The notes beneath the pieces are model-generated. The model was given only the letters and a program-made list of their open reading frames with translations. It made no database searches and was not told the DNA's origin. Made by a program: the position numbers and the translations under genes. From a virus, in the IMG/VR virus record IMGVR_UViG_3300042516_004811, positions 87,108-151,107 of that record: a stretch of 64,000 bases of DNA; one strand, written 5' to 3'. Shown here in pieces: positions 18,301 through 39,901 of this stretch (its first letter is position 1; each line of letters begins with the position of its first letter).

Positions 18301-21300
18301 AAGGGGGGCTTCAGAAGATGAATTTTCATCTACCTCAAGACCAAGCCTTGCAAGGCGAGCGTTGCGACGATTTATTGCACGACCAGCGGAAACTTGTTTC
18401 TGTGGGTCCAAAACATTAGAGATATCCACGTCTTCACCAGTACCAATCTGGCGAATGGCTTCACGTTGACGTGGCGTAAGTCGTCTTGATTGACTCGCCC
18501 TACGAGACTTAACAAATGAATCAGCATCCGCTTTCGATTTGAATTTTCTAGTTGGTTTTGGTTTAGGGCTGTTTAGGGCTTCAATTTTTTCATCGATTTC
18601 TTTACTAATTCTCGACCTGCTGCGTTTATCTCCACCAGCCCTAAGTTTTTCAATCATGGCATTCTTCATGGTGTCGAATTCTTCAGCTAGTTCTACTGAT
18701 TTGTCGACATCATCAGAATTTGCCTTCATCAGAACTTGGGTGTCGGCCATTTTTCTGATGGCTTTTTTATCATCGATTTGTGTTATGTCTTCAGAAATAG
18801 CATCAAGCTGTCTTGCTCTTGCATTTTTAGCAGCTTCCGATGGACTAAGTAGGCCGCGAGACTCCCTTAGTGACCCTACTTCTGCGTCAAATCTTGCGTT
18901 TTCCGAACGAGCACCAATTCCATACTTCTTTTTCCATTCACGACGTGCATCGTCGTACTTCTTCTCATGGAATTGAGCCTCTTCTATGGCTATATCAAGA
19001 AGCTCTTGTCTGGCTCTTGTTGCAGCATCTGTTTCTTCCGGTGTTAAGCCAGATGGGATTTCCGACTTTTCTATTTCATCCAGACTTTCTTTAGCGATAG
19101 TGTAATCTGTCGCTATTTCTGTAGCAACATCAAACATCTCCTCCTGAGTGAGTCCCGAATAGTCACTTCTGAAAGCTTTTAGAGTTTCTCTCCTGTCGGC
19201 AACCCTACGGACTAGCGCTTCTTCTGCCATTGCGTCTAGTTCTTCTGGCGTTATTCCAGGAAGAACGTCTGCTGTTGGTGAATCAATGTCTGGAGAATCA
19301 ACCTCATCCAGGTCATATGTTGCGCTTGCGATTGCTGCCGAAGTTTCAGCTCTCTTTGCCATGATGTCATCCATGAACTCCAGAACCGAGTCGACGTCAT
19401 CGCCGCTTATAAGTTTTTGTTCCCTCAGCGCATAAAGTTCAGCAAGGGCTTCTAGCGCCCATATTTCGCTTCCCTTTTCATATTCTCTTGGATATGCGCC
19501 AGAGAACTGAGCAACACCCTCTAGGCGGCTCATCACATCACCAAGTTCTTTAAGGTTTATCCCGTCAGCTGTTTGTGTCATCATGTTCATGATGTCGCCA
19601 GCGCTTAAGTCGTAAAGGCTATTTATCTTTTTCTGCCCTAGATAGTCGCCGCGCTTAGAGAACTGCGGAACCTCAAGCATTCCGGCTTTTGCTCTGCGGT
19701 CAATCTCCTCCATGAATCCCTGAGCCTGGACCAAGTGGGCAAATTCGTGTATCCCTATGTGTCTCGTGAATGATTTTGGACCATCTACGAGTCCAGCCAT
19801 GTGGCGAGCCGCAAGGTCAGCGTTTAGCATAAAATGTGAAAGAGCCATCTGAGATTCGGCGTCTGTTCTTCCGCCAATGGCAGCTATTGACAGGCGCTGG
19901 CCAGCACCCATGTTTGGAAGCATGGTTTCCTGGTTGCTCATAATCATGTCCATGTTGAAGTCGATTACCCCACGCATTTCCCCGGGTATTTTGACTTTTC
20001 TTGTTTTCCCAGTAACAGGGTCAGTCATGTCGATAATTTGAGCAGCATCGCGCATTAGTGATGTTCCGGCCTCGTGGTTCGAGTCCGAGTCGTACATGAT
20101 TGTTCCAAGAAACTTTGCTGCAGATGGGTTTCTCTTGAACTGAACTAGCAGGGACTCAAGGAATGCTCTTTCGGTTTCGTAATATCTTGCAGTATCAGCC
20201 TTGACCATGAGGTCTTGTTCTTCTTTTGAGAGTGAAGTCCATCCCTGAACGGCCTGTAGGCGGGCTGTGACAAACTGCTCGACTTGTTGTGGTGTCAGTC
20301 TTGGCTGGTCTACTCCGTTTGCGTTGACAAGGTTTACATCCCATCCGCGTGGGTCGCCATTATTAGCCATCTGTCGCAGTGTGTCAAATGCTTGACCAAG
20401 GTCTTCATTCGTGGCTCTCGCCTCATCACTTATGTCGACACCAAGGTCATCCAGTAGACTGAGAACTTCAGCATCAGCTCGCGCAATTTCATCTTGCGCG
20501 TTAATCATCCCATTAGTTGTTACGCGGAGATTTTCTGGGCCATCAACGTCACGCCAGTCAGGTGTTTCTATTCTTTCGCCAGTTGCTGCGTCATACCATG
20601 GACTGCGACCAATTCTTGCTGGGTCAGCATCAGCTAAGTCACGAAACCATCTTCCGTTGTAAACAAAGTCAAGTACATTTCGTGCACTGTTTCTAAGTCC
20701 CTGCATTTCTCCTTGGTTGGAGAGTTCTGCGGCCTGGCGAGCAGCAAATCTTGCGAATCTACTAGCACTGAACCCAAAGCAGTTTGAGCCCATGGCGTCC
20801 GTAAACTGGTTAGCTGCTGGCGTTCCTGGAGGACACCTAAACTTATTATTTTCATCTCTAAGTATTCCAACTGCTGCAGCTGCCCTTGCTAGCAATGAAC
20901 CGCCAGGAACTCGCGCACCAAGATTGGGTCCTAATGATTTTTCTTCTACGTTTTTGCCCTTGTTGAGCCTTCTTCTGCGTTCCTCCATTGTCATGCCTGT
21001 TGACATTGCAAATGGGTCGACAATTTTTTCAGAAGATGTGTCAACTTCGTCAGTCTTAGGGTTTACATCAAACTTAGATATTTTTATGTGTGGTTTATTT
21101 CGCAGCTTATTCAGCAGCTTGTCAAACGAATCAACTTCGCGTTCCTTTTCTGGAATCCAGCCAAAATTAGGCTCGATATCCATTCCGCGAATGCTCTCAA
21201 TTGTTGGCGATAGAACAAGCTTTGAGCCCGGTTCCCATCTGGCTTCTGGTTTCCACCTATACCCGTATGCGTTTTTTTCAACACCGGGCATTGATTCCCC

Positions 21301-21528
21301 GGTGAATTCACGCTTTTTATTGTCAGTGTTTCCCTCGTCTTGTTTGCGAGAGATGTCCCAACCAAGCGCCTTTACGGCTATATCTGCTTGAAGCCTGCCT
21401 GAGTAGACGCTTCCGTTGATTGATTGCTTGAAACGAAGCGCTCTAGCATCGAAGTCCCTACAGCAGGCAACTGGAGATACTAGACGTCCAGACGTTATTA
21501 CCCTGTGCTTTACCGGTTCACCCGACAT
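15316..21528 (-). CDS. 2070-aa multidomain (polyvalent-type) protein: zincin metallopeptidase + degenerate VIP2-like ART + others
   Basis: HEFAH...EALAELY, LTPRQREAI...GESRFILPPGSLRVV, and three LSSG motifs. Confidence 0.75.
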   Translation of the reverse strand: MSGEPVKHRVITSGRLVSPVACCRDFDARALRFKQSINGSVYSGRLQADIAVKALGWDISRKQDEGNTDNKKREFTGESMPGVEKNAYGYRWKPEARWEPGSKLVLSPTIESIRGMDIEPNFGWIPEKEREVDSFDKLLNKLRNKPHIKISKFDVNPKTDEVDTSSEKIVDPFAMSTGMTMEERRRRLNKGKNVEEKSLGPNLGARVPGGSLLARAAAAVGILRDENNKFRCPPGTPAANQFTDAMGSNCFGFSASRFARFAARQAAELSNQGEMQGLRNSARNVLDFVYNGRWFRDLADADPARIGRSPWYDAATGERIETPDWRDVDGPENLRVTTNGMINAQDEIARADAEVLSLLDDLGVDISDEARATNEDLGQAFDTLRQMANNGDPRGWDVNLVNANGVDQPRLTPQQVEQFVTARLQAVQGWTSLSKEEQDLMVKADTARYYETERAFLESLLVQFKRNPSAAKFLGTIMYDSDSNHEAGTSLMRDAAQIIDMTDPVTGKTRKVKIPGEMRGVIDFNMDMIMSNQETMLPNMGAGQRLSIAAIGGRTDAESQMALSHFMLNADLAARHMAGLVDGPKSFTRHIGIHEFAHLVQAQGFMEEIDRRAKAGMLEVPQFSKRGDYLGQKKINSLYDLSAGDIMNMMTQTADGINLKELGDVMSRLEGVAQFSGAYPREYEKGSEIWALEALAELYALREQKLISGDDVDSVLEFMDDIMAKRAETSAAIASATYDLDEVDSPDIDSPTADVLPGITPEELDAMAEEALVRRVADRRETLKAFRSDYSGLTQEEMFDVATEIATDYTIAKESLDEIEKSEIPSGLTPEETDAATRARQELLDIAIEEAQFHEKKYDDARREWKKKYGIGARSENARFDAEVGSLRESRGLLSPSEAAKNARARQLDAISEDITQIDDKKAIRKMADTQVLMKANSDDVDKSVELAEEFDTMKNAMIEKLRAGGDKRSRSRISKEIDEKIEALNSPKPKPTRKFKSKADADSFVKSRRASQSRRLTPRQREAIRQIGTGEDVDISNVLDPQKQVSAGRAINRRNARLARLGLEVDENSSSEAPLDRQVQNVLIPTMEAIDATSITEPFEIEAIVEVESGKVSGRSVGKDVQIDSLVTGRLMPKGRRPTKLTRQQESDAPEGKKKKRVVISLKEGDKGIFSSPGEDGESRFILPPGSLRVVSRGDDGTIYMEVSSQKNAVEAAESLRDSLSNGTDDAIWRKGASNRVGKVVNEYVTARRESRDIDSPRNDSDKQIAETNSSINEQVVDAGSSFGEGIDDVDLQGASESLSSGRSIYGPKQTRAQRTESRRSKISSNAKEIRNILSGKGSKEFPELSKENIDPRVAELIMNLPDEELHSLIEETAYRMHSGLDRRAHVRMRESEVDEMLITGTVRSPLASSSDDSPVASRRIERILRRNSSGTREDGFRRAMQSESLSSGAVKKGIGERLKGRAMNQIAERMGLDDEEKEVMELVVDTAAAMRFGPQAALTKLGMELARRGSRDLAEFVVEKLKEDDRINDEQAKMILKRMNRVAPEGLPEPLKDAAVSAARGARRMVDTPENRERIATARESAGRRARRLRDASAERVREMRDRITGVEAINDAGETGPPIGLPPVPVLRGEPRVTLSSGRVERTLKPGSISPQTSKIKSSRASISLGENWRDQIEVYEIGGKRVAFGVPNEQSWESDISDVEVLPINPFVISGLDETSDEGRELAIKWTLAGIGLNEEGNDSKTEASSILYAATRGDTDAQKRLDDLAEAGQKTVDASRKNIAQLRQETIDREAAAREKTLSELRRALPDASEEEIQRRARPSRSNGFSGLSVDDLYLVHETTYEPQYDSDGNLVIRPTGDYPMLDENGQPLLDDNGRPWDTYRGTIHFSINHRVSGHQQRETPEASNVIMIPLKDVIAANPGALDNLYGVDTYLTPPPGEPLKLPASAVRTLKLEKGETDPWGKVHTELESMGMSPDVRMYGGTDSVGLDADQRISGIAAQLDVENKMHSHSDNAHFEKTRKHDGMSFPVTPGIFANLSRNALLRLMHQDRWSGANNSLSETTRSVV

Positions 21529-21542: not shown

Positions 21543-23120
21543 TTACTTATCGTCGATTGAGTCTTCGAGAAGCTGGAACTCGACGAGGGCCGCCATGAAA
21601 TCCGCATCACCCAGCTCCTCGCTCTTTTCCTTGCTTCCGGCAAGCCAGTTTGCGGGGATAAGGCTTTCGAGTTTAAGGTCGCGAGCGCGCTTCATAATAT
21701 GGCGCTTGGCAGCCTCTTTGTCTTTTGCCCTACCGAAAGCCTGAATTGCATTTCTTAGGTCGGACTCTGAAACGATTGGATATGAACCGTCAGGAAGAGC
21801 CATACCTTCCTTGGCAAGTTCCATTCTTCTCTCTTCAGAAAAAGCTCTCTTGATTGCAATCTCAGCTGCTTCTGCTTCAATCTGCTCAACCTCATCAGCT
21901 TCATACTTGTCATAACCGAGCACTTCGCCATCAAGGGCAACGAAGACGTCGTACGACTTTCCGTCAAATCCTTCGATTTCTACAGCATAAGCATCAAAAC
22001 CTTCGAAAACATCTGGCTCTACCGCAACAACATGTCCATCAATTGACTTGACGGCGATTTCTGCTGCTTCGGTGAAATCAATGAGCTTGTATTCAGAAAA
22101 GCCAGACTTCTGTTCAAATTCTGATTCATCGAGCTTCTGGAAGCCCAAAACTTCTGCGCTTGTTCCGTCGATGAATACTTCCTTGACGGAACCATCCTTT
22201 GTCTGTACGTCAACAACAAACATGTCTGCTGGCTGCGAGTAGCCGGAGTCAACAACAACACCATCGAACATTTTTTCTGCCAAACCTTCGACGTGTAGCA
22301 GTCCGGGCAGACCCTTTTCAGCAACACAACCACCTGGGCAGTCGTCGCAAACAGGAGAAGAACCCGCATAGGCTTTTCTCTCTATTGCACATAGATATCC
22401 GTGAGCGCCAAGGTCAGCTGTCTTTATTCCAAGGGACTTAATTCGTGACCTGCGAATGTCTTCCCACTCTGAGTCGCGAGCAGAGAATGACTTCTCGCCC
22501 ATAATGAGCTCATCGTCTTCGTCTTCCTCGTATTCCTCGTCCTCTTCGTCCTCGTCTGACATTTCTTCGTCTTCCGACATTTCTTCGTCGTCTGACTCTT
22601 CGTCATCATCTTCTGAGTCGATTTCTACCTCAAGCTTTGCAGCCTTCGCCTTGCCCATAGTTCTTTGAGCAGAAGACTCCTCGTCTTCGTCACCCATTGA
22701 CTCCATGTCCATTTCGGCTTCGTCAAGCGCTGCCTCTTCGCCCTCGTCATCAGCCATTATTACCTGGCCAGGAACTGGGACCCTCTTGGGCTTCATCTCT
22801 TTAGATGATTTCTCCATTGGCTCGCCGTCTTCGTCTTCTTCCTCTTCGGTGTCTGCCTCAAGGTCAACTTCCATTACGCCAACAACGCCACCTTCTGCAG
22901 GCTTCTTCTTCGGCTTCATTTCCGGAGCTTCCATGGCCATTTCCTTCTCCTCCAACTCAGAGGCGGGAACCATCTTCATCTCAACAGGCATGGCGCCGCA
23001 CTTTGCGCACAACTCCGAACCCTTAACAAAACCGCAGTCAGCGGCACTAGCGCCTTTGGCGCACTTAAGAACGTTGCCCTCGGCGTCAATGCTGACTGTG
23101 GCTTTCTCGTCGTAGCTCAT
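21543..23120 (-). CDS. acidic scaffold-like protein with two PepSY-like domains and a C-terminal DUF6582-like domain
   Basis: GGGAG RBS before ATG 23120. D/E-rich tract, IDFTEAAEIAV...YAVEI...DG...VFVALDGEVL, and ALPDGSYPI...NAIQAFGRA...HIMKRA. Confidence 0.7.
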   Translation of the reverse strand: MSYDEKATVSIDAEGNVLKCAKGASAADCGFVKGSELCAKCGAMPVEMKMVPASELEEKEMAMEAPEMKPKKKPAEGGVVGVMEVDLEADTEEEEDEDGEPMEKSSKEMKPKRVPVPGQVIMADDEGEEAALDEAEMDMESMGDEDEESSAQRTMGKAKAAKLEVEIDSEDDDEESDDEEMSEDEEMSDEDEEDEEYEEDEDDELIMGEKSFSARDSEWEDIRRSRIKSLGIKTADLGAHGYLCAIERKAYAGSSPVCDDCPGGCVAEKGLPGLLHVEGLAEKMFDGVVVDSGYSQPADMFVVDVQTKDGSVKEVFIDGTSAEVLGFQKLDESEFEQKSGFSEYKLIDFTEAAEIAVKSIDGHVVAVEPDVFEGFDAYAVEIEGFDGKSYDVFVALDGEVLGYDKYEADEVEQIEAEAAEIAIKRAFSEERRMELAKEGMALPDGSYPIVSESDLRNAIQAFGRAKDKEAAKRHIMKRARDLKLESLIPANWLAGSKEKSEELGDADFMAALVEFQLLEDSIDDK

Positions 23121-23237
23121 AGAACTCCCGTAAATGCAGGGAAATGCCATAGGGACATTAACCAATCAATTTGCTTAAATTATAACGTATCAGAACCTTG
23201 CGCGCTAATTAGTAACGTTTGCTAATTTGCTTGCCTG

Positions 23238-26200
23238 TTAATCGTTGGCGAAATTGTCTGGCTTAACCTTTCTTCTCTCTCGTTTTTTTCCAGAGAGTGT
23301 CTCGCCATCCTCTTCAATTCTTCTGCGTGCTGTCTCTAGCTGCTCTCTACTGAAGATGTCTTCAATGGTGTGATTCGTTCCAAATGCTTCATTGAATCTG
23401 TTGACAATCTGTTGTAGCTCGTTGCTGCTGAATCTTGGTTCATCGCCCTTTCTTGGGCTGAATACGGAACCTTTTCTCTTTGCTGACTCCGACAGATATA
23501 GGGCCATATCTGTGCTGTTTGTTATGTAGTTGCGCGTTTTTGTGCTGTTTTGCGGCGAATTCGGAAAACTCTTGTCAATAAATTCATTAAGTGCCTCATA
23601 AACAGCATGTTTCGCGTTGCTGAGTTCTGAATCCAGTTTTGAACCGGAGTCTCCATCTCGCCAAACAGAACTGGCGTCTGGAATGAGACCAGCCTTTATC
23701 ATCTGGTTGATATACGCGATTGGAACTCCGTTTTTCTTCCAGTCACTCTGTGCGCCAAGACCAACATCATCCATGCCGAACGACTGCTGCAGTCTTTCGC
23801 GCATTCTCTGTTGCCATCCCTTTTCTGGGATACCCAGATACTTGAGAAGAGCGTCAAGTTCAAAGTCCTTGCGCGCAGTCTTGTCAGCCCTTAGCTCCTC
23901 CGCAGAAACATCTGGCTCCTGTATGTCAGGAAGTTCTGCCTCATCAATTGACTCCTCCATGAGCATTTCCTCAACTGGTGAGTCACCCCTGGTGGCGCTA
24001 TCTTTATCGAATCGGCCGCTAGCACGGAATTGTGAAACCCTGCTCACCTCACCAAGTGAATCGTATTCCTCTGGGGAGATTGGGTTATTTTCTTCCTCGT
24101 CAAACCAGTGTGGGAATGCGTCCTTGCCAAATGTTTCGATTATGAATCGGTCACGCATGTTGGCCCTGCCAAGATTTTCCGCAAATCGTTCCATTACGTT
24201 CATTTCAGCAAAGTCTTCGTCTGCTCTTGTGACAGGGGCAAAAAGCCTCCATCCAGCAAACTCTGGCTGTTTTCCAAGTTCGGCAACAAGCATGCGTACC
24301 GCATCGTGGTTAATTCCGGCATCGGGGTCCGAAAGTTTTGCCGCATTTGGCTTGTCAAGGTTCAGCAGGGATGCCAGCTCATCATTGCTTAGTGGACGCG
24401 ATTGGGTCCAGGTAATGTCTTTTCTTCCGGTTCCTGGGTCGGTCTGGACAGAGTATTCCGTTGGAATTCTTATCGTATCCTTCAGTTTTTCCGTGGAGAG
24501 CATCCATGTTGAGGCTGTTGGGTTCTGGTTGGGGTTGTTTGACGAAACGCTACCAACAGTAATTTGTGGTCTGTCTGCCATTCTCTGTGAAACGTTGTTC
24601 ATCGCTTCGCGAATCTGTCTCTGTCTTGCATCAGTTCCAGAATCATCACTATTCACGTCAAGGGCTATGCCGGTTCTCTTGAATCCGTCCCATACGCGCA
24701 TTGAATAATCGAGTTCGCGTCTAGCTTTAGAGTTTGTTTCTGGGTTTCCAGACAACCTCAGACCTGCAATTCCCTGTGTGCTTGGTCTTGCATTCCTTGG
24801 TGCGCGCTGAGCTCCGCCCTGGCGCAGTCTGCGACCAAATCTTCCTTCTAGCTCCACATCGGTACGACCGCTAGAGAAGAACTCTTCTGGCGACGGACCA
24901 TCATTCCGCTTGCCAGGGCGACGATTTGCCCTCAGCCTGTCACGGTCAGCAAATCTTTGCCTGTCTTCGTCGGACCATGGGGTTTGACGGGAACGATTTA
25001 GTCTGCGGTTTCTGCGTCCGCGACCTGAGCGACCAGAGGAAAGGAAGTCAACGAACTGGTCCATGTCTGGACTATTGGACGCGTCCTCGTCACCGATGTC
25101 TTCGATTCCGTCGATGCTGGCGTCTTCGTCTTCTTTTTCCTCTTCTTTTTCTTTGATTATGTCGTCAATTGACTTGCCATCATCGCCACCACCAACTTCG
25201 TAGTCGCCAGGCTCATCGTCGTCGTCTTCGATTGTTGGTGTTGGTGCATTTATTTCCCCAGAGTATGGGTCAAACAGGCCTTCCGGCTTATTGAGATAGT
25301 CGGGCATTCTGCCGTCCTCAATAGCCTTGTCGATTGCCTCCCTTTGTCTTGCCGACACAGTGTCAGAGAGGTAAAGGTCGTATATTGCCTTGCCCGGGTC
25401 GATTGCTCTCTTTGCTCTAGTTAGAGCAACATAAACAATGTTGAGTTCCTCTCTTCTGGAGCGACTCTCAACTGGTTTTCCAGTTTCTGGGTCTATGTCG
25501 AGGTCTGGAGGATTACGGAAGTCAGAAGCAACGCGGACCCTATCCCACTCTCTACCCTTGGATAGCTGCGCGGTTGTTATTTCAACGTCAGCATTTGGCG
25601 TTTTTGCTGAAGTCCTCATGCGGCTTACTATGTCGTTGAGAATAAAAGCAGTTTCTTCGTCGGTATCGCCCTTGATAACAACAGTGTCTCCAAACTCTTT
25701 TCCAGAACCTTCCTTGTTTCGGAGACCGTTCTTCTTGAATTGGACTTTTCCACCGTAGTAATCACTATCCTCTAGGATTCTCATCATGTCTCTGAAGTAG
25801 ACACCCTGTGGCGCTTTTACGACTTTTCCAGTCTTGGTATCGGTGTATTCACCACCGCTATCAATGCCCCAGTCAAATAACTCAATGGCCCCCGTCCATT
25901 CGCCCTCACGCTTTCCGTTCACATCCGCGAGCTGGAGGTGCCACTGAACCTTGCTCTTTCCTTTACCGGTTGTGTCTGGAATTACCTCAAATCTTCTGGC
26001 ACGACTTGCTGTTGACGTTGAGGTGAAACCCGTTCCGCGCTGTGCAGATATGGTCTTTAGGTCATCAACATTTACGTCCTTGAGCTTGGAAAGATTGAGC
26101 ATCTTTCTCTCTGGAACAATGACTGGCGCCTTGATTCCTGGCGTTACGCCATTAGCGAACATGTTTCGGTATTCCCATGCCCTGCGTGGTGGGATTCCGA

Positions 26201-29200
26201 GGTTTTTATTGCCGCGAGTAACAAGCTTGTACATTGACTTGAGCTGTGCATACTGCTCTTGTTGAGCCCTGCGCTTTATTTCGCCAGCATCCCAAACATC
26301 ACCAATCCATGAAGACGCTTTCGGGCGCAACCCCTTCTTTGTCAGCTCTATCTGCTTATCTACCGGTGTATCCATTACGAACGACAAGTGCTCAAAGAAT
26401 GCTTTCATTTCTCTGTGTTTTGTCGCTGGAATCATCACAACGGGAGGGAGTTCCTGTCCGTTTCTGGTGAATCTCGGCTGGAAGTTTTGGATGAACTGCA
26501 ATGCTTCATAAATAATTGTTGCATTATCGCGCGTAAGGATTGCGTCAGCGTCCTTCATGTCGGCAACAAACTCACCAGCTGCTTCTTTTGAAAGAACATC
26601 CTTTAGTGACGCAAGCTCCCTGCTTCTTGCTGCCTCGTCCATATCGGCAAGAGCAACGTAACTATCTTCTACTTTTCGGAGCTCCTTGGAGAGAGCCTTG
26701 TTGATTTCAATACCTGAAACAATTTCATCATCAGACAAAGATGCAAGCTTTGTCTTGTACTTCTTGTCTGCTGCTTTGAGCTTTTCTCTTCTCTGGTCAA
26801 CAGTCATGCTTGTCATATCGAAATCATCACGAATGCCTTTTTGGGCAATTCTGATTCTGTCGCTCTTGTACTTTGACTCAATCTTTACTAAGGCTTCGCG
26901 GGCTCTTTCTGGGGAAAGGCCATCCATGTCGAAGTCGTTGTTGATTACATCAACAGCCAAACCGGCAACGTGGTGGAATCTGTCTTCTATTCCCAATTCA
27001 GAATCGTCAATATTGCCCTGTGACTGAATCAGGTTTGCCAACCAAGCAACAGTTGGTCCATAACGGAACGACTCATTCAATGGGAGGTCATAGTCGCCGT
27101 TTAGTGAGGAAAGAATGTCTTTAGCACCACGGAACGCATAAACTGCTTGCCTCTTGTCGCCAACAAGTAGAATAGAGAGATTGTCTCTGTTCTTATTTAA
27201 CACCTGCTCCATTACTGGGTTCATATCTTGAGCTTCGTCAATCATGAACATTGACAGCGGGTTATCCTTAGTTGCGTATCTCCGCGCGACCGTGGCCTGG
27301 AAGTTCTTGCCTTTCTGGCCTGTCTTTACAGAGATAACCACACGTCCGTCAGGGAGAATGTCCCCAACTTTTGTTTCCTTTGGAACCTGAACGTTTGCCT
27401 CTAGGTCTTTTCCTGTGGCATGACCAATCAAGCCAGGGTCGCTTCTCAGGTCTGGGTCGGTCATCGCCCAGAGTTTGTCTGTCTGCCCTTGGTCTGGAAG
27501 GACGATGCTGTCCGGGTCGGTAACCATGTTCCAACCATCATTGGCGTCTTTCAACCACTGGTCTGGAATTGAAGGCCATTCAGTGTCAACAATTGAATCA
27601 GATGCTCTGCCCTTGTTGATGTCTGCTCTCTTGAAGTGCTGTGGGCCGATTTTCTCGTCAGCACTGTTTGCGAATGCCTTGAGTGCCTTGTTAAGAATGT
27701 CTGCATAGTCTCTAACTGTTAGATTTACTCCCGCTATTGGGGTTGGCATTCCGGCACCCTTGCCAGCAGAGAACTCTTCTCTATCGGTGAGCTTGAGTGC
27801 TTTAATCCAGCCGTTTGAGTCAGATAGCTTCAAATAACCAAGGTCTCTCCAGCCCGGGTCGTACCCAACCGTCTCACCCTCTGTTCCATCAACTTTTGTG
27901 AACTTGATTGTTTGAAGTTTTCCGTCTTTGTCTCTTCTGGCAAATGTCCCTCTATCCTGGGTGGAAATTTTTACCTTGTCGCGGAACTTCTTGCCATACT
28001 TTTCGTCACCCTGACCGAGCAACAATGACCACCAAGACAGCCTGTTTAGTGTTGATACACCAGTGTTGTCGCTGAATTCAGCAGCAGCCTCTTCTTCATT
28101 CTTCTTGTTGAAAACAACGTAGTACGCCGTTGGTGACTTAAATTTGTCTCTAAGTTCAGAAAGTTTTGTATCCCTGTCCTCTTCCGACATTGAGGAAAGG
28201 TCAAACTTGTCATCATCGGTGCTGTACTTCTCGGAGATGAAATCCAGTTTTTCCTTTAGGGCTTCCGGTCGATTAATGAATCGCGTGATATCAAACTCGC
28301 GTTCAGCTGCGGCCATCAATGCCTTGAGGGTTGTTGTTTTCCCTGAGCCGGCACCAGCAGAAACAGTCATGATGCCTTTTTGCTCGCCAAACATTAAAGC
28401 AAGACCAGTATCGATGATGTCTTTCTGCTGCTCTGTTGGCTCATAAGAGAATCCATATAGGCTTCCGAAATGTGCCGTTCCTGGTGAGCGTTTTACGGCA
28501 CGAGCTTCGTCACCGCTCCTATGCTGGACTGAACCACGCGATGCACCACTGGACAAGCGTCCAGATACGTCCTTAGCTAACCCGTCGCGACCCTCACGAC
28601 GGATATAGCCGCCGCCGATAATGTCTTCATCAACGGTATTGAGGTTGCTCATCATTGCGCCGCTAGACAGGGCCTCGGTTGAAGCCTCGCCGGAGGCCTT
28701 TGAGCCCTTCCTCGTTCTCTTTGGCTTTTCTGCTGGAGCTGGAGGAACTATGTCCTCAATGTCTTCGTCGCCAAATGTTCCACGCACGCCACCAATTGTC
28801 GGAATCTTTGGTGAATCCTCAAATCCAACAATCATTGGGACTTCAGCGGTTGCCTCGTCCTTGCCCTTGCGCTCGCCATCCGGAATACCAGCACGCTTGC
28901 GCATGGTTGCCGAACGATTCATCAGGAAGTCAACAGCCTGCTGAGCTTGAGTAATTGCGTCTTTCAATGCCTCTGGACGGCTACGTAGAGCCTGGAGCCA
29001 TGAAGCCAAGTACGGTGCGTGGTCTTTTCTCACTGGAGCTTCAACACCCATTGCGCCAAGAGCAAATGCCGAACCAATCTCGGCAATAAGTTCTTCGAAT
29101 GCATAATCAGCATCACCAAACTGTTTGCCAAGTTTTCTGTTCATTCTTGATGGGTGTGATGTCCAGTGAACGGTCTCGTGGAATAGCGTTGAGTAGAAGT

Positions 29201-32141
29201 TCAATGGGTCCTTGAACTGCTCAAACTGCGGCATTGTGATTTCGTCAGCCATTGGGCTATAGAAAGCCCTATTGCCCTTGACTTCCTTCCATGCTGGAGC
29301 AATTTCTTTGATTACATCTTCCAGGTCCTGGAGTCTCTGCTCTGGTGACAACTGAAGAACATCATCTAATTCATACATTTCTGGTGGGAGACCCTCAACG
29401 TCTGCGACGTTCCAGACTGTGGTTGTGTGGAAGCCGCGATAGCTGCCAACTACATTTCCATCCCTATCGAGTATGGCTGTCTCTGTTTTGTTCGGAGCAA
29501 GAATCTGGACGCCACGCTTTTCCATGGCCTCCTTGCTTATTTTGCCGCCAATCTTTTTCCACTGACCAGCTCCGGCCCAGCGATTCGTCTTGTAGCCCCT
29601 AGCGCTGCTGATTAGTGTCAGCATCAGCTGGTTTGTTCCCTGATAAACACGCTTCTGGCCAGTTGCGTTTCTCGCCATGATTTCCAGTTGGCGCCACGGG
29701 ATTTCCCATCTCGCATTGCCTGGATTCTTGGCAATTTCTTCAAGAGCAGTAATAATCTGCTCTGTCATCTTGGCATAAACATCATCCAGAATTTGCTTTT
29801 GCTCTTCTGGGGTTACATTGTCGGAGTCAAGAACCTTTCCAGAGGAAAGTCTTTCACCTTCTTTGAACTTGTTGAGTGGGCCCTGATACTTAACCTTGTC
29901 AAAATCGCTACGCTTATTGTCTGGGGTGCTGAGGAAGCGCTGGTAACCGCTTGAGAGTTTGGTTACGTCTCCAGCATCCTGCTGACGCATTTCGCGCTCT
30001 GACATCTTCTCGACACGATTCATGTATTTGTCGAGTTCGTTGATTGCCTTACGCAGTCTCTTTATTTGGTCTGGGTCACTTGCCCCATCAAGAACACCCT
30101 GTAGCTGTTCTCTCTGCTCTTCAGCCATGGCCATTTTGTCAAACGACGCAACATCTGGGTCATCCACACGTGGAACCTCATAGAGCTTTCCACTCGAAAG
30201 TCCTGTTGCTGGCTTTGATACTGGCGCGCCAGGTGCGCCTGGCTTCTTGAGCTGCTCGGGGGATGGCTTTGGGTTGCGTATTGAGCCAGGACCGTCTGGG
30301 GTTGGGTCGGCCTGCGCAAGGGGTGTGCCTCGCATGAATAGGCCCTCACCAACAATTCCATCAAGGTCAACGTCTCTTGCGGTGAATGGGTCAAAGTCCT
30401 GAGCACCAGAGCTGGTGAAGAATCTTCCACGAGAGCGACCGCCACCAAGATTTGGTCGGTCAACCATTCGGCTACCAATTGCCCTGCCTAGGCGGTAGCC
30501 AATAGCCTTTTCTTCTATGCCACCATCATTTAAGGATTTTTTTTTTAAATTATCAAGCGCGGTATCAATTGCGTCGATGAGCTCAAAGCTGGCCCCCGAA
30601 GTGATAACAATTCCATCCGTATCCACATAAGCGTCGGCATAGTGGTAATCAAAAATTGGGTCGAGAGCCTGCTTTACACGGAACGCATACTGCGGCATTA
30701 CCGGAATGCAGTATGCGCCATTCATGTCATCGCCCTCGCGACCGAAGTCAGCGAGGCTCTTGTATTTACGATTCTTCTTGCGCTTACGCCCAATAATTCC
30801 TCTTAGAGCAGCTACGGCTAGTTCGCCTGGATACTTAACCTCAAGGTCCTCAAGGTAATCCTCTTCATTTGCTTCTGTCTGGTATTCGTAAGACTTCTTG
30901 ATGACAACATCACCCTTGACTACACCCTTAGGAATGACTGCAAATCTGCACTTACCTTCAGATTCAATGTCGAGGTCGATTATCTGGCAAGAGTTCCCAC
31001 CCTTGAAAAATACGCAGTTGGCGCACTTGACGCCGATGTTCTTGACATCATTTTCTGCGGCCGATGTGTACCCAGCCCAAACGCCATCAGCGTCTTCATT
31101 AAACTTGCCATAGCGCTTAACTATCTTAAGAAGAGAATCGCGGAGGTCAGCCTCTTCTGAGTCGATATTGTTCGGGTCGAACTGCGGACGAGGCTTTTTA
31201 CCTGAGTCCTCGTAATCAACTGGCGGAAGCGGAACTATTTGCATCCCAGCCTCGCCTGGCTTGATTGCAACAGGGATTCCCGGCATCTGCGAAGGACGCA
31301 TAATTCTTTCTGGGACTGACGGCATTCCAGGTGAAGCCATTGGCATCATTGGCATTGGCTTTGGAGCCATAGGAACACGCTGTGGTGGGCCAAACATAAA
31401 TCCGGCAGGTCCACGGCTGTAGTGGCACTTGTACTTGCCCACTTTTCCTTCGTCTTCCCTACGCGAGAAGGTAATCATGTCATCAGCAACGTCATCAATC
31501 ATGACCTTTGAACCGATAACCATCGATAGCTGCTTTTGGATTTCGTCTGTCTCGTCCTCTTCCATCATCATCATCGGTGATGGGGTCATCATTCCGCCCT
31601 TTTCATCTGACTTAACTGAGATTGTTCCAGTTAGCTGGTTTGCACCATGCAGAACGGGGGAGACTTCGTATAGTTCAAGCTCAAAGATGACATTTGCCTG
31701 AGATTTCTGGTCATACTGAGCGCGTAGCGTCTTGTAACCAATTGACCACTCTTGCTCCTCGCCAAAAAAGGCAACATTTGCAAAGGCTTCCCGGCCCTTC
31801 TCGGACTGAAGATTGAACTGGACGCGAGCAAAAAGTCCACCAATTCCAGCCATTTTCATCTTCATTGGCAAGCGATTATCGGTGGGAGGAACTTCGTAAA
31901 TCTCTAGAACTTTACCAATCGGGTCATTCCAGTTATGGCCCCATACAACACGTGGTTTTCTACGCATCAAGCTCTTTGTAAAAGCGCCAGTGGCAACGAT
32001 GTCACCAACTGAGTCCTTGTTTCCGATGCCAGCAACGAAACACTCGACAATACCCTGCGCCTCATTGAGGTTAACTGAGTCGGCCTTGCCCTCGGCAGTG
32101 CCTAGCGCAGTTGTCTTGTATTCAAAAACCTCACCTGGCAT
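23238..32141 (-). CDS. 2967-aa polyprotein: HK97-type prohead protease + 4-Cys domain + ArdC (ssDNA-binding + metallopeptidase) + UvrD-like SF1 helicase
   Basis: Protease: DSVGDIV..GAF, WGHNWNDPIG, WSIGY, LYEVSPVLHGAN. ArdC: WEIPWR, YQGTNQLML, HETVHWT, YAFEELIAE. Helicase: AGAGSGKT, IDEAQD, VGDKRQAVYAFRGA, SFRYG, SKGREW, YVALTRAK. Confidence 0.92.
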   Translation of the reverse strand: MPGEVFEYKTTALGTAEGKADSVNLNEAQGIVECFVAGIGNKDSVGDIVATGAFTKSLMRRKPRVVWGHNWNDPIGKVLEIYEVPPTDNRLPMKMKMAGIGGLFARVQFNLQSEKGREAFANVAFFGEEQEWSIGYKTLRAQYDQKSQANVIFELELYEVSPVLHGANQLTGTISVKSDEKGGMMTPSPMMMMEEDETDEIQKQLSMVIGSKVMIDDVADDMITFSRREDEGKVGKYKCHYSRGPAGFMFGPPQRVPMAPKPMPMMPMASPGMPSVPERIMRPSQMPGIPVAIKPGEAGMQIVPLPPVDYEDSGKKPRPQFDPNNIDSEEADLRDSLLKIVKRYGKFNEDADGVWAGYTSAAENDVKNIGVKCANCVFFKGGNSCQIIDLDIESEGKCRFAVIPKGVVKGDVVIKKSYEYQTEANEEDYLEDLEVKYPGELAVAALRGIIGRKRKKNRKYKSLADFGREGDDMNGAYCIPVMPQYAFRVKQALDPIFDYHYADAYVDTDGIVITSGASFELIDAIDTALDNLKKKSLNDGGIEEKAIGYRLGRAIGSRMVDRPNLGGGRSRGRFFTSSGAQDFDPFTARDVDLDGIVGEGLFMRGTPLAQADPTPDGPGSIRNPKPSPEQLKKPGAPGAPVSKPATGLSSGKLYEVPRVDDPDVASFDKMAMAEEQREQLQGVLDGASDPDQIKRLRKAINELDKYMNRVEKMSEREMRQQDAGDVTKLSSGYQRFLSTPDNKRSDFDKVKYQGPLNKFKEGERLSSGKVLDSDNVTPEEQKQILDDVYAKMTEQIITALEEIAKNPGNARWEIPWRQLEIMARNATGQKRVYQGTNQLMLTLISSARGYKTNRWAGAGQWKKIGGKISKEAMEKRGVQILAPNKTETAILDRDGNVVGSYRGFHTTTVWNVADVEGLPPEMYELDDVLQLSPEQRLQDLEDVIKEIAPAWKEVKGNRAFYSPMADEITMPQFEQFKDPLNFYSTLFHETVHWTSHPSRMNRKLGKQFGDADYAFEELIAEIGSAFALGAMGVEAPVRKDHAPYLASWLQALRSRPEALKDAITQAQQAVDFLMNRSATMRKRAGIPDGERKGKDEATAEVPMIVGFEDSPKIPTIGGVRGTFGDEDIEDIVPPAPAEKPKRTRKGSKASGEASTEALSSGAMMSNLNTVDEDIIGGGYIRREGRDGLAKDVSGRLSSGASRGSVQHRSGDEARAVKRSPGTAHFGSLYGFSYEPTEQQKDIIDTGLALMFGEQKGIMTVSAGAGSGKTTTLKALMAAAEREFDITRFINRPEALKEKLDFISEKYSTDDDKFDLSSMSEEDRDTKLSELRDKFKSPTAYYVVFNKKNEEEAAAEFSDNTGVSTLNRLSWWSLLLGQGDEKYGKKFRDKVKISTQDRGTFARRDKDGKLQTIKFTKVDGTEGETVGYDPGWRDLGYLKLSDSNGWIKALKLTDREEFSAGKGAGMPTPIAGVNLTVRDYADILNKALKAFANSADEKIGPQHFKRADINKGRASDSIVDTEWPSIPDQWLKDANDGWNMVTDPDSIVLPDQGQTDKLWAMTDPDLRSDPGLIGHATGKDLEANVQVPKETKVGDILPDGRVVISVKTGQKGKNFQATVARRYATKDNPLSMFMIDEAQDMNPVMEQVLNKNRDNLSILLVGDKRQAVYAFRGAKDILSSLNGDYDLPLNESFRYGPTVAWLANLIQSQGNIDDSELGIEDRFHHVAGLAVDVINNDFDMDGLSPERAREALVKIESKYKSDRIRIAQKGIRDDFDMTSMTVDQRREKLKAADKKYKTKLASLSDDEIVSGIEINKALSKELRKVEDSYVALADMDEAARSRELASLKDVLSKEAAGEFVADMKDADAILTRDNATIIYEALQFIQNFQPRFTRNGQELPPVVMIPATKHREMKAFFEHLSFVMDTPVDKQIELTKKGLRPKASSWIGDVWDAGEIKRRAQQEQYAQLKSMYKLVTRGNKNLGIPPRRAWEYRNMFANGVTPGIKAPVIVPERKMLNLSKLKDVNVDDLKTISAQRGTGFTSTSTASRARRFEVIPDTTGKGKSKVQWHLQLADVNGKREGEWTGAIELFDWGIDSGGEYTDTKTGKVVKAPQGVYFRDMMRILEDSDYYGGKVQFKKNGLRNKEGSGKEFGDTVVIKGDTDEETAFILNDIVSRMRTSAKTPNADVEITTAQLSKGREWDRVRVASDFRNPPDLDIDPETGKPVESRSRREELNIVYVALTRAKRAIDPGKAIYDLYLSDTVSARQREAIDKAIEDGRMPDYLNKPEGLFDPYSGEINAPTPTIEDDDDEPGDYEVGGGDDGKSIDDIIKEKEEEKEDEDASIDGIEDIGDEDASNSPDMDQFVDFLSSGRSGRGRRNRRLNRSRQTPWSDEDRQRFADRDRLRANRRPGKRNDGPSPEEFFSSGRTDVELEGRFGRRLRQGGAQRAPRNARPSTQGIAGLRLSGNPETNSKARRELDYSMRVWDGFKRTGIALDVNSDDSGTDARQRQIREAMNNVSQRMADRPQITVGSVSSNNPNQNPTASTWMLSTEKLKDTIRIPTEYSVQTDPGTGRKDITWTQSRPLSNDELASLLNLDKPNAAKLSDPDAGINHDAVRMLVAELGKQPEFAGWRLFAPVTRADEDFAEMNVMERFAENLGRANMRDRFIIETFGKDAFPHWFDEEENNPISPEEYDSLGEVSRVSQFRASGRFDKDSATRGDSPVEEMLMEESIDEAELPDIQEPDVSAEELRADKTARKDFELDALLKYLGIPEKGWQQRMRERLQQSFGMDDVGLGAQSDWKKNGVPIAYINQMIKAGLIPDASSVWRDGDSGSKLDSELSNAKHAVYEALNEFIDKSFPNSPQNSTKTRNYITNSTDMALYLSESAKRKGSVFSPRKGDEPRFSSNELQQIVNRFNEAFGTNHTIEDIFSREQLETARRRIEEDGETLSGKKRERRKVKPDNFAND
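30526..30549 (-). other. candidate frameshift/slippage site T TTA AAA AAA AAA with nearby out-of-frame stops
   Basis: T10 on the + strand at 30537-30546. The -1 frame stops at TGA 30528-30526 and the +1 frame at TAA 30532-30530. Confidence 0.5.
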
Positions 32142-32244: not shown

Positions 32245-34332
32245 TTAAACAGTTTGGGCGTAATTCCAGGTACTTCTGGCAACATCCATAGCAATTTCAG
32301 CCTGTTCTTTGGCAAAAAAGTTGGTGTACATGTCGACAATTCCCTCACGAATCATCGACGCTCTACTATCTCCGTCAATGAGATTAAGGCTGTCAATGTA
32401 GAGGCGCTGTATTTCATTGACGTTCTCCCTGTTGAGTGACTTAATTACACCAACCTGAGAGTCAACGGTCTTTACCGTGTCAAGTTTTGGCAGGCTCTTT
32501 ACTTTGATTCCGTTAGCTTCGCCAAATTCTTTTCTAGCATCGTGAGAGTCGCGAATAATCGCAGAAAGAATTGGCTTAATGTCCTCTTCCATCTGTCTAT
32601 CCCAAGTATCGATAGCTAGAACTGCGTCCACCTCAAGGGTTCCAGCAGATAGGGCCTTTCTGGCCTTCATTCCAGTCACCTTCTCAAGAACGACCCTTTG
32701 CTGTCTTTCTATGACGCGCTCAATGCTTCTTGAAAGAATTTCGGCCCATCTTTCGATAGCCATCTCCGACTTGTCTTCGAAGTAAGAGTCATTTTTTTCT
32801 TCTATTTCATCTTCTTCAGTCTTTGTTTCAACTAGAGAAGCGTCTGCGCCAGCCATCGTCATTCCGGGTACTGGGGGCGGCGGAGTTACTGGTGGTGCGG
32901 CCTCGGCCGGAACGGTTGTTTGGGCCAACTCGCCCGCACCAGCTGCTTCAGCCATCGCTCCCTGCATTGTGTTTGGGTCAAGGGGTACTGGTGCCCCAGG
33001 AGGCATTGGGGCACCCGGCATTGGTGGCATTCCAGGCATTCCAGGCATTCCAGGCATTCCAGGTGCGCCGGGGACCTGTGCTGCGTTCTCCTCCATCTTC
33101 TTCTTGGTGTTGGCAATCGGAATGAGGTTCGGGTTTGCTAATAGTGAGTCAGCAAGGTCGGCTTCAACTTCCTTGCGTGACGAGCCAGTTCTGTACTCGT
33201 TTGCCGAAATCAGGCCGCCCTGGAACTCCTGGAGGAGGTATCTGTCTCGCTCTTGCTTGTAAAGCATAAGGATGGGGACTTCCGAAGTGTCGAAGTCGAC
33301 GTAGTACTTATCATCCAGTTCATCAAGCGCGCGAGCAATTGGCTCTAGGTGAGGAAGCATTGTTTCCATCCAGAAAACGCGAATTTCCTCTGCTGCGTTA
33401 CTAAATGTTCTTCCAGCAGCATTTCCGATGACCGACTCGGGAACACCAAACGCAGAAAGGATTTCCTCCTTGGTGACCTGACGCATCTGAATATATGCGG
33501 CATCTCTTGGGGAGGCCGAGGTGTCGACGTAATCAACTCCGTCATCTGCCGCAATTACCGTTGTGTGGCCAGTCTTCGCGAGGTTCCCACGAAATCTAGA
33601 CTTCAACTCTTCCTTGTCGTCTTCGTCGATTTCTCCACGAACAACAAGGAGTCCGCCTGGTCTACCGTCATTAAGGAGGTAGTTGCGGTTATAAAGCTTG
33701 GCAAGGTTTTCAATTTCTATCGCAACACCGGCTGCTTCCAGCGGGGTCAGGGACAAGTATGGGTCGAGTGGGTGTGGTCGCCTAATCCAGCAGACATCTT
33801 CTGGTTTTAGGAATTTCTTCTCACCATAAGGCATCATCACTTCGTAGCCCTTGACGAAAGTCTTGGGGTCTGGAATTGGCGCAGTTGATTGCGGTGGAAG
33901 AAGGTTCAGAGCAATTATTCCGCCGTCTCGACCACGGATTTTCTCGATAAAAACACCGCGAGTACCGAGAAGCAACTGAGCCGAAAGCCGGTAACGGAAG
34001 ATAAACGAGTTCTCCCCAAGGTTGGCACGATTGTTAAGAATCTCCAAAAGATTGGACCTGTTTGCTTCGCGCCCAACAACAATCTCACCCATATTGGAGT
34101 TGTCTTTGCGGAGAATTATTGGAAGTCTCGCCTGGTTCCCGGAAATAGCGTCAATACAGCGATTAACCCACGTAATTTTGGACATGCCCTCGCGGTATGC
34201 GCGCTCAATGTCCCACGAGTCCCTATAGGACTTGCCAACGAACGATGGATTGCTTGAAATAGGCAACCCGTAGCCGAGCTGCTTAGCCTGAGGTCCATCA
34301 AGGGACTTGTTTTGTCTTGAGTTCCACGCCAT
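32245..34332 (-). CDS. HK97-type portal protein with a Pro-rich linker and C-terminal extension
   Basis: WVNRCIDAIS, GRPGGLL, ILSAFGVP..IG...FSNA, ISANEYR. Confidence 0.93.
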   Translation of the reverse strand: MAWNSRQNKSLDGPQAKQLGYGLPISSNPSFVGKSYRDSWDIERAYREGMSKITWVNRCIDAISGNQARLPIILRKDNSNMGEIVVGREANRSNLLEILNNRANLGENSFIFRYRLSAQLLLGTRGVFIEKIRGRDGGIIALNLLPPQSTAPIPDPKTFVKGYEVMMPYGEKKFLKPEDVCWIRRPHPLDPYLSLTPLEAAGVAIEIENLAKLYNRNYLLNDGRPGGLLVVRGEIDEDDKEELKSRFRGNLAKTGHTTVIAADDGVDYVDTSASPRDAAYIQMRQVTKEEILSAFGVPESVIGNAAGRTFSNAAEEIRVFWMETMLPHLEPIARALDELDDKYYVDFDTSEVPILMLYKQERDRYLLQEFQGGLISANEYRTGSSRKEVEADLADSLLANPNLIPIANTKKKMEENAAQVPGAPGMPGMPGMPGMPPMPGAPMPPGAPVPLDPNTMQGAMAEAAGAGELAQTTVPAEAAPPVTPPPPVPGMTMAGADASLVETKTEEDEIEEKNDSYFEDKSEMAIERWAEILSRSIERVIERQQRVVLEKVTGMKARKALSAGTLEVDAVLAIDTWDRQMEEDIKPILSAIIRDSHDARKEFGEANGIKVKSLPKLDTVKTVDSQVGVIKSLNRENVNEIQRLYIDSLNLIDGDSRASMIREGIVDMYTNFFAKEQAEIAMDVARSTWNYAQTV
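33026..33063. repeat. 9-bp tandem repeat GGCATTCCA x4 (PGM units)
   Basis: Directly visible inside the portal gene. Confidence 0.9.
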
Positions 34333-34585: not shown

Positions 34586-34647
34586 ATAACATACAGTAGC
34601 GCACAAAATTGCTCGCCGTGGCGGAAAGAGTGCAGGAAGAATTGATT

Positions 34648-35988: not shown

Positions 35989-36486
35989 ATGTCATTAGAA
36001 AAACTTGCCGAGATAAAAGAACTTATTACAAAACTTGAGTTCGATATCGATGCATTCGTTTCATCTGAGCCATCCATGGATGAGGCTTGTTCAGCCCTAG
36101 TTGAAATGAACATCCTCAAGAGGGATATCTCATATGTGTATGACCATCTGTCTAGGGCAGTCTCTAGAATTATGGGAGAGACAGAAAATATTTCGCTCCC
36201 CGATGGCTCAACTATTGAGAAGAAATCCTCGTACGACAGAAAGGGTTGGGACCACAAGGCTCTTGCCTCCGTCGTTGCCCAAAAAGTTGTTCAGATGTCG
36301 GTTGATATGGATACTGGTGAAGTCATCAAGTCTCCACAGGAAATAGCTGCAGAAATGTTGACCTACTGTGCTCCCTCTTACTGGAGAATCAAGGAACTAA
36401 ATAAACTCGGCGTTAATGCCGACAACTACTGCGAAGTTGGCGAACTGCGCACTAGCATCATCGTGCGTAAACCAAAGGAAATCTGA
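35989..36486 (+). CDS. hypothetical protein
   Basis: AAGGGG before ATG 35989. In operon with the recombination genes. Confidence 0.75.
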   Translation: MSLEKLAEIKELITKLEFDIDAFVSSEPSMDEACSALVEMNILKRDISYVYDHLSRAVSRIMGETENISLPDGSTIEKKSSYDRKGWDHKALASVVAQKVVQMSVDMDTGEVIKSPQEIAAEMLTYCAPSYWRIKELNKLGVNADNYCEVGELRTSIIVRKPKEI

Positions 36487-36496
36487 GGCATTGAAC

Positions 36497-37943: not shown

Positions 37944-37993
37944 GAGGAAAAACAATAAAACCGCAGGCTTTAATACCTGCTATGTTCATCGAT

Positions 37994-38497
37994 ATGAACG
38001 ATGACGCTTTTGCAAGGATGGTTGCAGAGGAGGTTAAGAATAAAATCTCCCCTGTTCACAAACAGGAGTTGATGAAAGAAGATAATTGGGAGCGCTGGAG
38101 AGAAGCGCTTATTGCTCTTTCAGAAAATCTTCAACGTCAGATTGAAAGCATTGAAGCAGATGCAATCTCTGACGAGAGGCGCTATGCGTCCCTGGGCAAG
38201 ACCGGAACAAGACTTGCTCGCGAGTCAAATAGCTACTACGACACAAAGGCCACAAGAGTTCGTAGATTTAAGTTTCATGTAGATAAGAGACTCGACGAAG
38301 TTTGCGTGATGATTGATACTGGCGATGTCATTAATTCTGACGGATGGGACCAGGTTGAGTTCTATCGAAAAGCCATAATTGAGCATCGTAATCTGATGAG
38401 ACAGTTTGACCTTGAGGACACTTCTATCGATAGAGCTCTATGGGATACTCTGGATAACCAGTGGAACTTTGATTCCGTAAATAACGACAACCTATAG
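37994..38497 (+). CDS. hypothetical coiled-coil protein
   Basis: TGCTATGTT extended -10 lies 7 nt before ATG 37994. Confidence 0.75.
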   Translation: MNDDAFARMVAEEVKNKISPVHKQELMKEDNWERWREALIALSENLQRQIESIEADAISDERRYASLGKTGTRLARESNSYYDTKATRVRRFKFHVDKRLDEVCVMIDTGDVINSDGWDQVEFYRKAIIEHRNLMRQFDLEDTSIDRALWDTLDNQWNFDSVNNDNL

Positions 38498-38508
38498 GTG
38501 GTAACGCC

Positions 38509-38934: not shown

Positions 38935-38940
38935 GTAATC

Positions 38941-39002: not shown

Positions 39003-39017
39003 GTTATAGTCGAAACT

Positions 39018-39900: not shown

Positions 39901-39901
39901 C

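Follow-up and report, generated by a model that had tools for sequence, protein, structure and literature searches.

How a phage might bring very large enzymes into its own head, in a controlled amount and in a form from which they can be set free, is the question raised by a single open reading frame (ORF) of 2967 amino acids on the minus strand (positions 23238-32141) of a 64,000-nucleotide stretch of viral DNA, which covers positions 87,108 to 151,107 of the IMG/VR record IMGVR_UViG_3300042516_004811. This stretch, referred to here as the window, makes up the final 64 kb of that virus record, which is complete at 151,107 bp and has direct terminal repeats. The controlled loading of large enzymes into phage heads is understood in only a few models, that is, the T4 targeting peptides, P1 Dar, the virion RNA polymerase (vRNAP) of N4, and the inner bodies of phiKZ. 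The ORF itself, the Pfam and PHROGs matches, and the homologs together describe the long form of a protease-led polyvalent cargo polyprotein, and suggest a complete scheme that comprises a loading module, a dosage device whose reading frame flips between lineages, a code of cut sites, and exchangeable cargo cassettes. The interpretation favored here, with a probability of approximately 0.6, is that slippage sets a mixture of bare protease and protease-cargo fusion, which would be loaded into the proheads and cut at the junctions between the modules.

Architecture and Spread of the Fusion

The ORF, all of whose features lie on the minus strand, is headed by a Peptidase_S78 domain of the HK97-type prohead proteases (amino acids 28-174, 31620-32060), recognized by PF04586 (E 3.7e-10, 40.6 bits against a cut-off of 21) and by the PHROGs families phrog_80 and phrog_3244, both of head maturation proteases. 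The residues H69 (31935-31937), S133 (31743-31745), and H165 (31647-31649), which are presumably catalytic, as assigned by motif position rather than by structure, are invariant in two homolog alignments, of 24 and 26 sequences, and approximately 110 of the roughly 150 columns of the domain are invariant across 24 homologs that are otherwise 29-63% identical. This is the sole S78 match in the complete 151-kb genome, and searches of the genome for ClpP and S49 found no other maturation protease, while the S77 search, which missed its control, was uninformative.

The protease is followed by a linker rich in methionine and proline, and then by a 4-Cys domain (amino acids 345-410, 30912-31109), which is modeled with low confidence, and in which four cysteines (C373, C376, C385, and C398) are invariant or nearly so in the homologs. 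A helical/alpha-beta domain (amino acids 412-531, 30549-30908), which is conserved in the homologs and modeled with a predicted local distance difference test (pLDDT) score of 70-87, closes this conserved N-terminal module of approximately 535 amino acids, and is followed by a run of ten adenines (A10). As the HK97 protease has its targeting region at the C-terminus, this last domain is, by analogy, a candidate for the capsid-docking part of the molecule. The AlphaFold model of the module as a whole is poor (pLDDT 55), being confident only at amino acids 200-258, a small beta domain, and 412-535, and a search of the PDB sequences found no match.

The cargo begins with an ArdC-N single-stranded DNA-binding domain (amino acids 787-873, 29523-29783; ArdcN PF08401, E 4.6e-14) and an MPTase-PolyVal zincin (amino acids 953-1062, 28956-29285; PF18818, E 3.4e-38), which has the motif HETVH at amino acid 988 (29166-29180). 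This order of domains is that of the ArdC anti-restriction proteins, as also called by PHROGs (phrog_7245, E 6e-64), and anti-restriction activity is thus predicted. A UvrD-like superfamily 1 (SF1) helicase module with large insertions (amino acids 1198-2368, 25038-28550), which PHROGs recognizes as a DNA helicase, retains the intact motifs GSGKT (1265), DEAQD (1635), GDKRQ (1661), and TRA (2241). Its Pfam matches are to UvrD-helicase/AAA_19 (amino acids 1621-1674; PF00580, 40.6 bits, above the cut-off) and AAA_30 (amino acids 1251-1282), and that to UvrD_C (amino acids 2179-2246) lies just below the cut-off, at 22.7 bits against 25.6. The final cargo module, of approximately 545 amino acids (2424-2967, 23241-24872), is conserved in the family and confidently modeled (pLDDT 82). 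It has no match in Pfam or the PDB sequences and nothing usable in the ESM Atlas; the best Foldseek hit has an E-value of 0.48, and the best hit of the VIA wide search (Z 4.4) covers only a small helical piece, similar to a helix-turn-helix, at residues 421-524 of the module. The original prediction, made from the letters of the DNA, had named the protease, the 4-Cys domain, ArdC with its HETVH motif, the SF1 motif set, and the position of the gene after that of the portal, and the Pfam, PHROGs, and motif scans agree with it on each of these points.

An assembly artefact, on which that prediction might have foundered, is ruled out by the presence of the fusion in hundreds of independent contigs. 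A protein-cluster search found 296 large homologs, of 2300-4760 amino acids, which combine S78 with cargo, a profile scan found matches in at least 468 IMG/VR stretches, and a giant ORF of 2874-4909 amino acids is present in every contig that is long enough among 80 fetched IMG/VR loci. These homologs and IMG/VR stretches have the gene order in common, and even in distant clades it is maintained, with PAPS-reductase-like, ParB, exonuclease, Rad52, and TerL genes on one side, and on the other, the portal, the fusion, an acidic protein of approximately 500 amino acids, and a further giant protein, which has approximately 2100-2300 amino acids in the relatives.

The protease is N-terminal in all the homologs, and the first 620 or so amino acids are 50-60% identical among relatives whose cargo differs. 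Some of these relatives lack ArdC or the helicase, and others add sigma70_r4, pentapeptide repeats, DEAD, or RNase_T. This variation behind a conserved N-terminal region is the interchangeable cargo for which the original prediction suggested looking. No near DNA match was found among cultured relatives in the phage collection, where tblastn returned only single-domain matches, to ArdC, the helicase, or the protease.

In more distant lineages (clusters P0162-P0256), the S78 proteins have approximately 460 or 1000-1240 amino acids, some of them with pentapeptide repeats, and mostly lack the motif [LF]SSG described below. As they share only about amino acids 1-270 with the protein of the window, the C-terminal partner of the protease appears to vary widely in this group of phages.

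A Shared Peptide at the Module Borders

Every module of the fusion ORF is bracketed by a short peptide, [RK]-[LF]-S-S-G, which has the extended context [RK]-[LF]-S-S-G-[RKA]-[RK] and flanks rich in aspartate, glutamate, glycine, serine, and proline. The first LSSG (amino acid 648, 30189-30200) marks the end of the N-terminal module, and is followed by a second at amino acid 729 (29946-29957). The third (765, 29838-29849) and fourth (1158, 28659-28670) enclose the ArdC module, the fifth (1196, 28545-28556) and sixth (2367, 25032-25043) the helicase module, and an FSSG (2422, 24867-24878) stands at the start of the C-terminal module. These six LSSG and one FSSG compare with an expectation of 0.07 (Poisson P 2e-10), and none of 20,000 shuffles reached six. 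In the whole proteome of 46.8 k residues, LSSG occurs 12 times, 11 of them within three giant proteins.

The peptide is equally prominent in the relatives, given that the most frequent tetrapeptide in nearly all of approximately 120 homologs is LSSG, replaced in some clades by FSSG or LASG, with up to 18 copies. The segments between the junctions recur in size, with approximately 650 amino acids for the N-terminal segment, 390-410 for ArdC, 1170-1300 for the helicase, and 525-550 for the C-terminal segment. The density of the sites per 1000 amino acids is 2.47 in the fusions, 1.07 in the downstream ORFs of the head operon, and 0.16 in the upstream genes.

Two other giant proteins of this genome contain the peptide. 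One, of 2070 amino acids, is encoded in the head operon (15316-21528, minus strand), and has LSSG at amino acids 1300, 1447, and 1638, and HEFAH at amino acid 594. The other, of 1210 amino acids (positions 82424-86056 of the genome, minus strand), has two LSSG sites and HEYGH at amino acid 1081. Neither has a Pfam or PHROG match, and both are probably further cargo polyproteins. A protein of 1516 amino acids in the tape-measure position, after the sheath and tube genes (48948-53498, plus strand), has RLASG at amino acid 36, GLSSG at 568, and VMASG at 582, and its relatives keep sites near amino acids 40 and 580-600, with RFASG, GFASG, and GFSSG in these places in the G001 phage.

The variants of the peptide change together within a genome. 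In one phage (L004), the zincin-free fusion and the neighboring giant protein share G-L-A-S-G, and another (L029/G001) has only the F-variants, in the fusion, its neighbor, and the tape-measure-position protein. This pattern points to a single trans-acting reader of the peptide, which would most simply be a protease.

A Conserved Slippery Run and Its Two Arrangements

The border between the N-terminal module and the cargo coincides with a predicted slippage site, the A10 run TTA AAA AAA AAA (30537-30546, minus strand; amino acids 532-535, LKKK), at which slippage would yield a short form of approximately 537-539 amino acids. No homopolymer in the 151-kb genome is longer than this run, which is unique there. 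At the nucleotide level, NNA AAA AAA AAA is kept in the same phase in 41 distinct relatives, in which the residue before KKK varies (L, I, V, or T) and the third position of its codon is invariably A (TTA, CTA, ATA, GTA, or ACA). Synonymous sites in the flanks are free to change, and an alignment of 140 nucleotides has no invariant block other than the A9 core. In this genome, TTA is the rarest leucine codon (7%), and AAA makes up only 43% of the lysine codons. Both of the shifted frames reach a stop within five codons in all 41 relatives, in several different downstream contexts, where the background medians are 8 and 14 codons. On this comparison of sequences, the slippery run is conserved at the nucleotide level beyond what the amino acids require. 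No conserved stimulatory RNA structure was found downstream of the run, where RNAalifold predicted zero pairs for 26 sequences, which is consistent with slippage of the RNA polymerase, with transcripts of both the +1 and -1 types, or with unstimulated ribosomal slippage.

In other lineages of the family, the cargo lies out of frame. At least six protein clusters, of 534-548 amino acids, consist of the N-terminal module alone, and end one to six residues past KKK. The next gene is the ArdC/helicase cargo in all four of the clusters whose neighbors were examined (P0137, P0140, P0143, and P0149), and is in another frame in those with readable DNA (P0140 and P0143). One such split lineage has the sequence GAT TTA AAA AAA AAG TCC, identical in five assemblies from different samples, in which the zero frame stops after five codons, the -1 frame, which encodes the cargo, is open starting within the run, and the heptamer is A_AAA_AAG, the dnaX site. 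A different lineage carries A13 and has its cargo in the +1 frame. The two arrangements are found close together, given that P0137, 80% identical to the protein of the window, is of the split type, and P0002, 86% identical, is in frame. The persistence of both arrangements in one family suggests that slippage would supply both products in either case. This expression of two products, which had escaped the original prediction, is added here as a reading of the recoding site.

Proposed Loading and Release, and the Competing Explanations

The process may be envisaged in four steps. Slippage on the A run, either by the RNA polymerase or by the ribosome in the -1 direction, would produce a short, protease-only product and the full-length fusion, in a ratio set by the frequency of slippage, as in the tau and gamma products of dnaX and in Gag/Gag-Pol. 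The HK97-type prohead proteases are co-assembled into the procapsid, and both forms would likewise enter it through their shared N-terminal module. The junction peptides would then be cut inside the prohead, most likely by the S78 protease, which heads the protein, is the invariant element of the family, and accompanies the peptide in zincin-free fusions, and this would release ArdC, the helicase, and the C-terminal module. The freed enzymes would remain in the head, exit together with the DNA, and, as it enters the new host, counter restriction and act on it. We infer the packaging, the cleavage, the cutting enzyme, the ejection, and the expression of two products from what can be read in the sequence, that is, the architecture, its conservation, the junction code, and the recoding site. 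The earlier idea of a loading tag with cargo that is cut free gains indirect support through the conserved N-terminus and variable cargo, the junction peptide, the only recognizable maturation protease, and the slippage site at the border between tag and cargo, and its virion presence, cleavage, and ejection stay at the level of prediction.

A stronger version of this scheme, which can be offered only tentatively, would be a loading system of the Gag/Gag-Pol kind, in which the A run sets the ratio, and the fusion brings swappable anti-defense cassettes into the capsid. Through one peptide used across the genome, the near-invariant S78 protease would then divide the fusion into individual enzymes for injection, and would cut the tape measure and the other giant head proteins as well. 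If slippage supplies both products in this way, the genomic frame at the run would be able to toggle between lineages.

A number of observations weigh against loading and release by this route. The proposal draws on sequence, and no cultured relative was found from which a virion proteome could come. Two distant clades (L004 and L005) lack the A run, which thus characterizes the main lineage rather than the fusions as a whole. Some of the out-of-frame cases known from a single contig may stem from errors in assembling the homopolymer. At the expected boundary of its delta domain, the capsid protein shows no canonical [LF]SSG, but only the conserved SLT[SA], which lies near this boundary, and QL[ST]S. 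In addition, HExxH motifs are found in the 2070- and 1210-amino-acid proteins and in the neighbor of the L004 fusion, a protein of 2296 amino acids. The junction peptide is also present in the tape-measure-position protein, which is not a component of the prohead, and this implies processing or recognition outside the prohead, by a cutter that need be neither S78 nor confined to that compartment.

The last two points lend weight to an alternative that is unlikely, and yet survives better than the others, in which the polyprotein is packaged and is cut by a zincin, either the MPTase of the ArdC module or the HExxH domains of the neighbors, in the virion or after ejection. An MPTase-PolyVal domain is indeed part of the fusion, and autoproteolytic release by such domains was proposed by Iyer et al. 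(PMC5512222). Fusions with neither an MPTase nor an HExxH motif (the P0096-99, P0104, P0108, and P0111 types, and that of L004) nevertheless retain the peptide, and the zincins come and go in a family in which the S78 domain is invariant. These zincin-free fusions were rejected as proof against a zincin cutter, because the neighboring proteins carry HExxH. Those neighboring motifs have no Pfam zincin match.

Still less probable is a late polyprotein that is processed in the cytoplasm and never joins the virion, with the protease alone entering the proheads, and ArdC and the helicase acting in the producing cell, on progeny DNA or on DNA that comes in. The packaging of the cargo is a prediction, the short form could be the only one packaged, and the peptide in the tail protein implies protease activity outside the prohead. 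The gene nevertheless lies inside a block of approximately 23 kb, between those of the portal and the capsid, that encodes giant proteins sharing the peptide, and the common N-terminal module makes co-assembly the simplest expectation. Anti-restriction is, moreover, needed when the DNA enters the cell, before phage genes are expressed, as established for ArdC and for the packaged Dar and IPI proteins.

The idea that [LF]SSG is a docking, chaperone, or ejection signal, or a flexible hinge, in a giant protein that works uncut, for which the sharing of the peptide with a tape-measure-position protein that also passes through the tail and the unprocessed packaging of the N4 vRNAP might be cited, cleavage being only predicted here, is highly improbable in view of the location of up to 18 copies exactly at the module borders, in disordered linkers, the protease at the head of the protein, and a covariation of the variants within genomes that fits the co-evolution of an enzyme with its substrate.

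Comparison with Known Systems

Polyvalent proteins were defined by Iyer, Burroughs, Anand, de Souza, and Aravind in 2017, in phages and conjugative elements. They were predicted to travel inside the head and to be freed by peptidases that form part of them, in an explicit analogy with polyproteins (PMC5512222). The fusion has the defining features of this group, that is, ArdC-N, MPTase, SF1 helicase, S78, and unassigned modules in one polypeptide, encoded by a gene linked to the portal and terminase packaging genes, and it shares with the published examples the multiplicity of effector domains, the ArdC-N and MPTase hub with helicases, and the portal-terminase linkage (PMC5512222). The assemblin-like peptidases of that study are rare and always C-terminal, whereas the protease here is N-terminal, and is the only recognizable maturation protease of the phage. 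Neither a defined junction peptide nor a recoding site is described there, and the words "frameshift" and "linker" do not appear in the study (PMC5512222). The N-terminal position of the sole maturation protease, the defined junction code, and the slippage device, all as read from the sequence, thus appear to be new. A search for literature on the fusion, the junction code, or the slippage site, in a library that is incomplete, found only this general paper on polyvalent proteins.

The predicted expression of two products with one N-terminus, through slippage on an A-rich site, resembles that of retroviral Gag/Gag-Pol and of the dnaX tau and gamma products of Escherichia coli and Thermus. In the retroviruses, the enzymes reach the capsid by way of a shared structural part, and are released there by a protease. 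The dnaX gene has the heptamer A_AAA_AAG, and in Thermus, its product is shortened when transcription slips on an A run. The arrangement in the window would be of the dnaX kind, with the long form in frame and slippage truncating it, and that of the split sister lineages would be of the Gag/Gag-Pol kind, in which slippage fuses the parts. A further difference is that no conserved stimulatory RNA structure was detected downstream of this run.

A further parallel is found in the internal head proteins of T4 and of phiKZ and SPN3US, where one short consensus peptide is also common to several proteins of the head operon. The prohead-protease cut sites are L/I-x-E for gp21 of T4, and S/A/G-x-E for the gp175 type of phiKZ and SPN3US. 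In phages of the T4 and phiKZ types, the maturation protease cuts the head-internal proteins in the prohead, and the cargo is ejected into the host. The cargos of T4 and phiKZ are, however, separate proteins with targeting peptides, whereas here protease and cargo form a single polypeptide. In those phages, the cut motif is found in the capsid proteins as well, which is not evident for the capsid protein of the window, and the proteases are of the S77/T4 type, rather than S78.

The nearest cultured relatives of the protease belong to actinophages (of Gordonia, Brevibacterium, and Streptomyces), which makes an actinobacterial host likely. The stand-alone S78 proteins gp34 of Gordonia phage Hanem (455 amino acids) and gp52 of Streptomyces phage Gilgamesh (642 amino acids) are 36-37% identical over the protease in a protein comparison, and approximately 36-40% by tblastn. 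Their genes sit just before that of the capsid. In contrast with the fusion, both have acidic, scaffold-like tails and lack the ArdC/helicase cargo and the LSSG code, and their homology with the protein of the window ends at about amino acid 213.

In Gilgamesh (L003, MN234216.1), gp52 (9025-10950) is annotated as a "hydrolase", and consists of the S78 protease, a Nudix-box sequence, and an acidic tail. Just upstream, gp48 (1-7713 of L003) is a hypothetical protein of 4624 amino acids. These two genes suggest that cultured actinophages, too, have protease-enzyme fusions and giant genes in the head region, though not the LSSG code.

The Head Operon and Its Neighbors

In most phages, only the protease and the scaffold lie between the portal and capsid genes. 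Here, the minus-strand head operon runs in the order portal, fusion ORF, an acidic protein of 540 amino acids, the 2070-amino-acid protein, six proteins with no family assignment (505, 170, 217, 680, 245, and 212 amino acids), and the capsid, a distance of approximately 23 kb from the portal gene to that of the capsid. The portal gene (32245-34332, minus strand; PF04860, E 2e-50, also called by PHROGs) is directly upstream of the fusion ORF, and the large terminase gene (TerL, 34609-35961, from Pfam) is divergent from it. The tail sheath gene (46137-47603) is a marker of a phage with a contractile tail.

The major capsid protein (7698-9059, minus strand), encoded by the last gene of this block, has the HK97 fold, with a match to PF05065 from amino acid 165, and an N-terminal, delta-like region of approximately 140 amino acids. 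An FSGG at amino acids 137-140, close to the predicted boundary of the delta domain, was considered as a junction and rejected, as it is a lineage-specific insertion of four amino acids, private to the copy of the window. This capsid protein is 81-88% identical to the copies of relatives whose fusion proteins are only 34-60% identical.

The 540-amino-acid protein encoded directly after the fusion (21543-23165, minus strand) has clusters of cysteines at its N-terminus and an extremely acidic tract of approximately 150 amino acids, and has no family match. Its position after the fusion is conserved, with a counterpart of 494 amino acids in L004, and it may act as a scaffold or serve inside the head to balance charge. 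The 212-amino-acid protein encoded immediately before the capsid gene (9226-9864, minus strand), with two copies of DUF3721 (PF12518, E 2.7e-13) and paired cysteines, occupies the expected place of a scaffold or decoration gene. Beside the terminase, a plus-strand block (36416-42085) encodes a Rad52/Erf-like annealing protein, a PD-(D/E)XK exonuclease, and ParB-like and PAPS-reductase-like proteins, and is syntenic in all the relatives examined.

Implications

The interest of this locus is high, given that the model it suggests is specific and directly testable. If the model is true, the published statement that assemblin-like peptidases are found only at the C-termini of polyvalent proteins would need to be revised (PMC5512222). 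A defined pair of protease and cleavage site would become available, together with a natural design for the delivery of proteins through phage capsids. The fusion would also represent a prokaryotic counterpart of Gag-Pol, and the giant genes of a widespread group of uncultured phages, with genomes of approximately 150 kb, would find an explanation.

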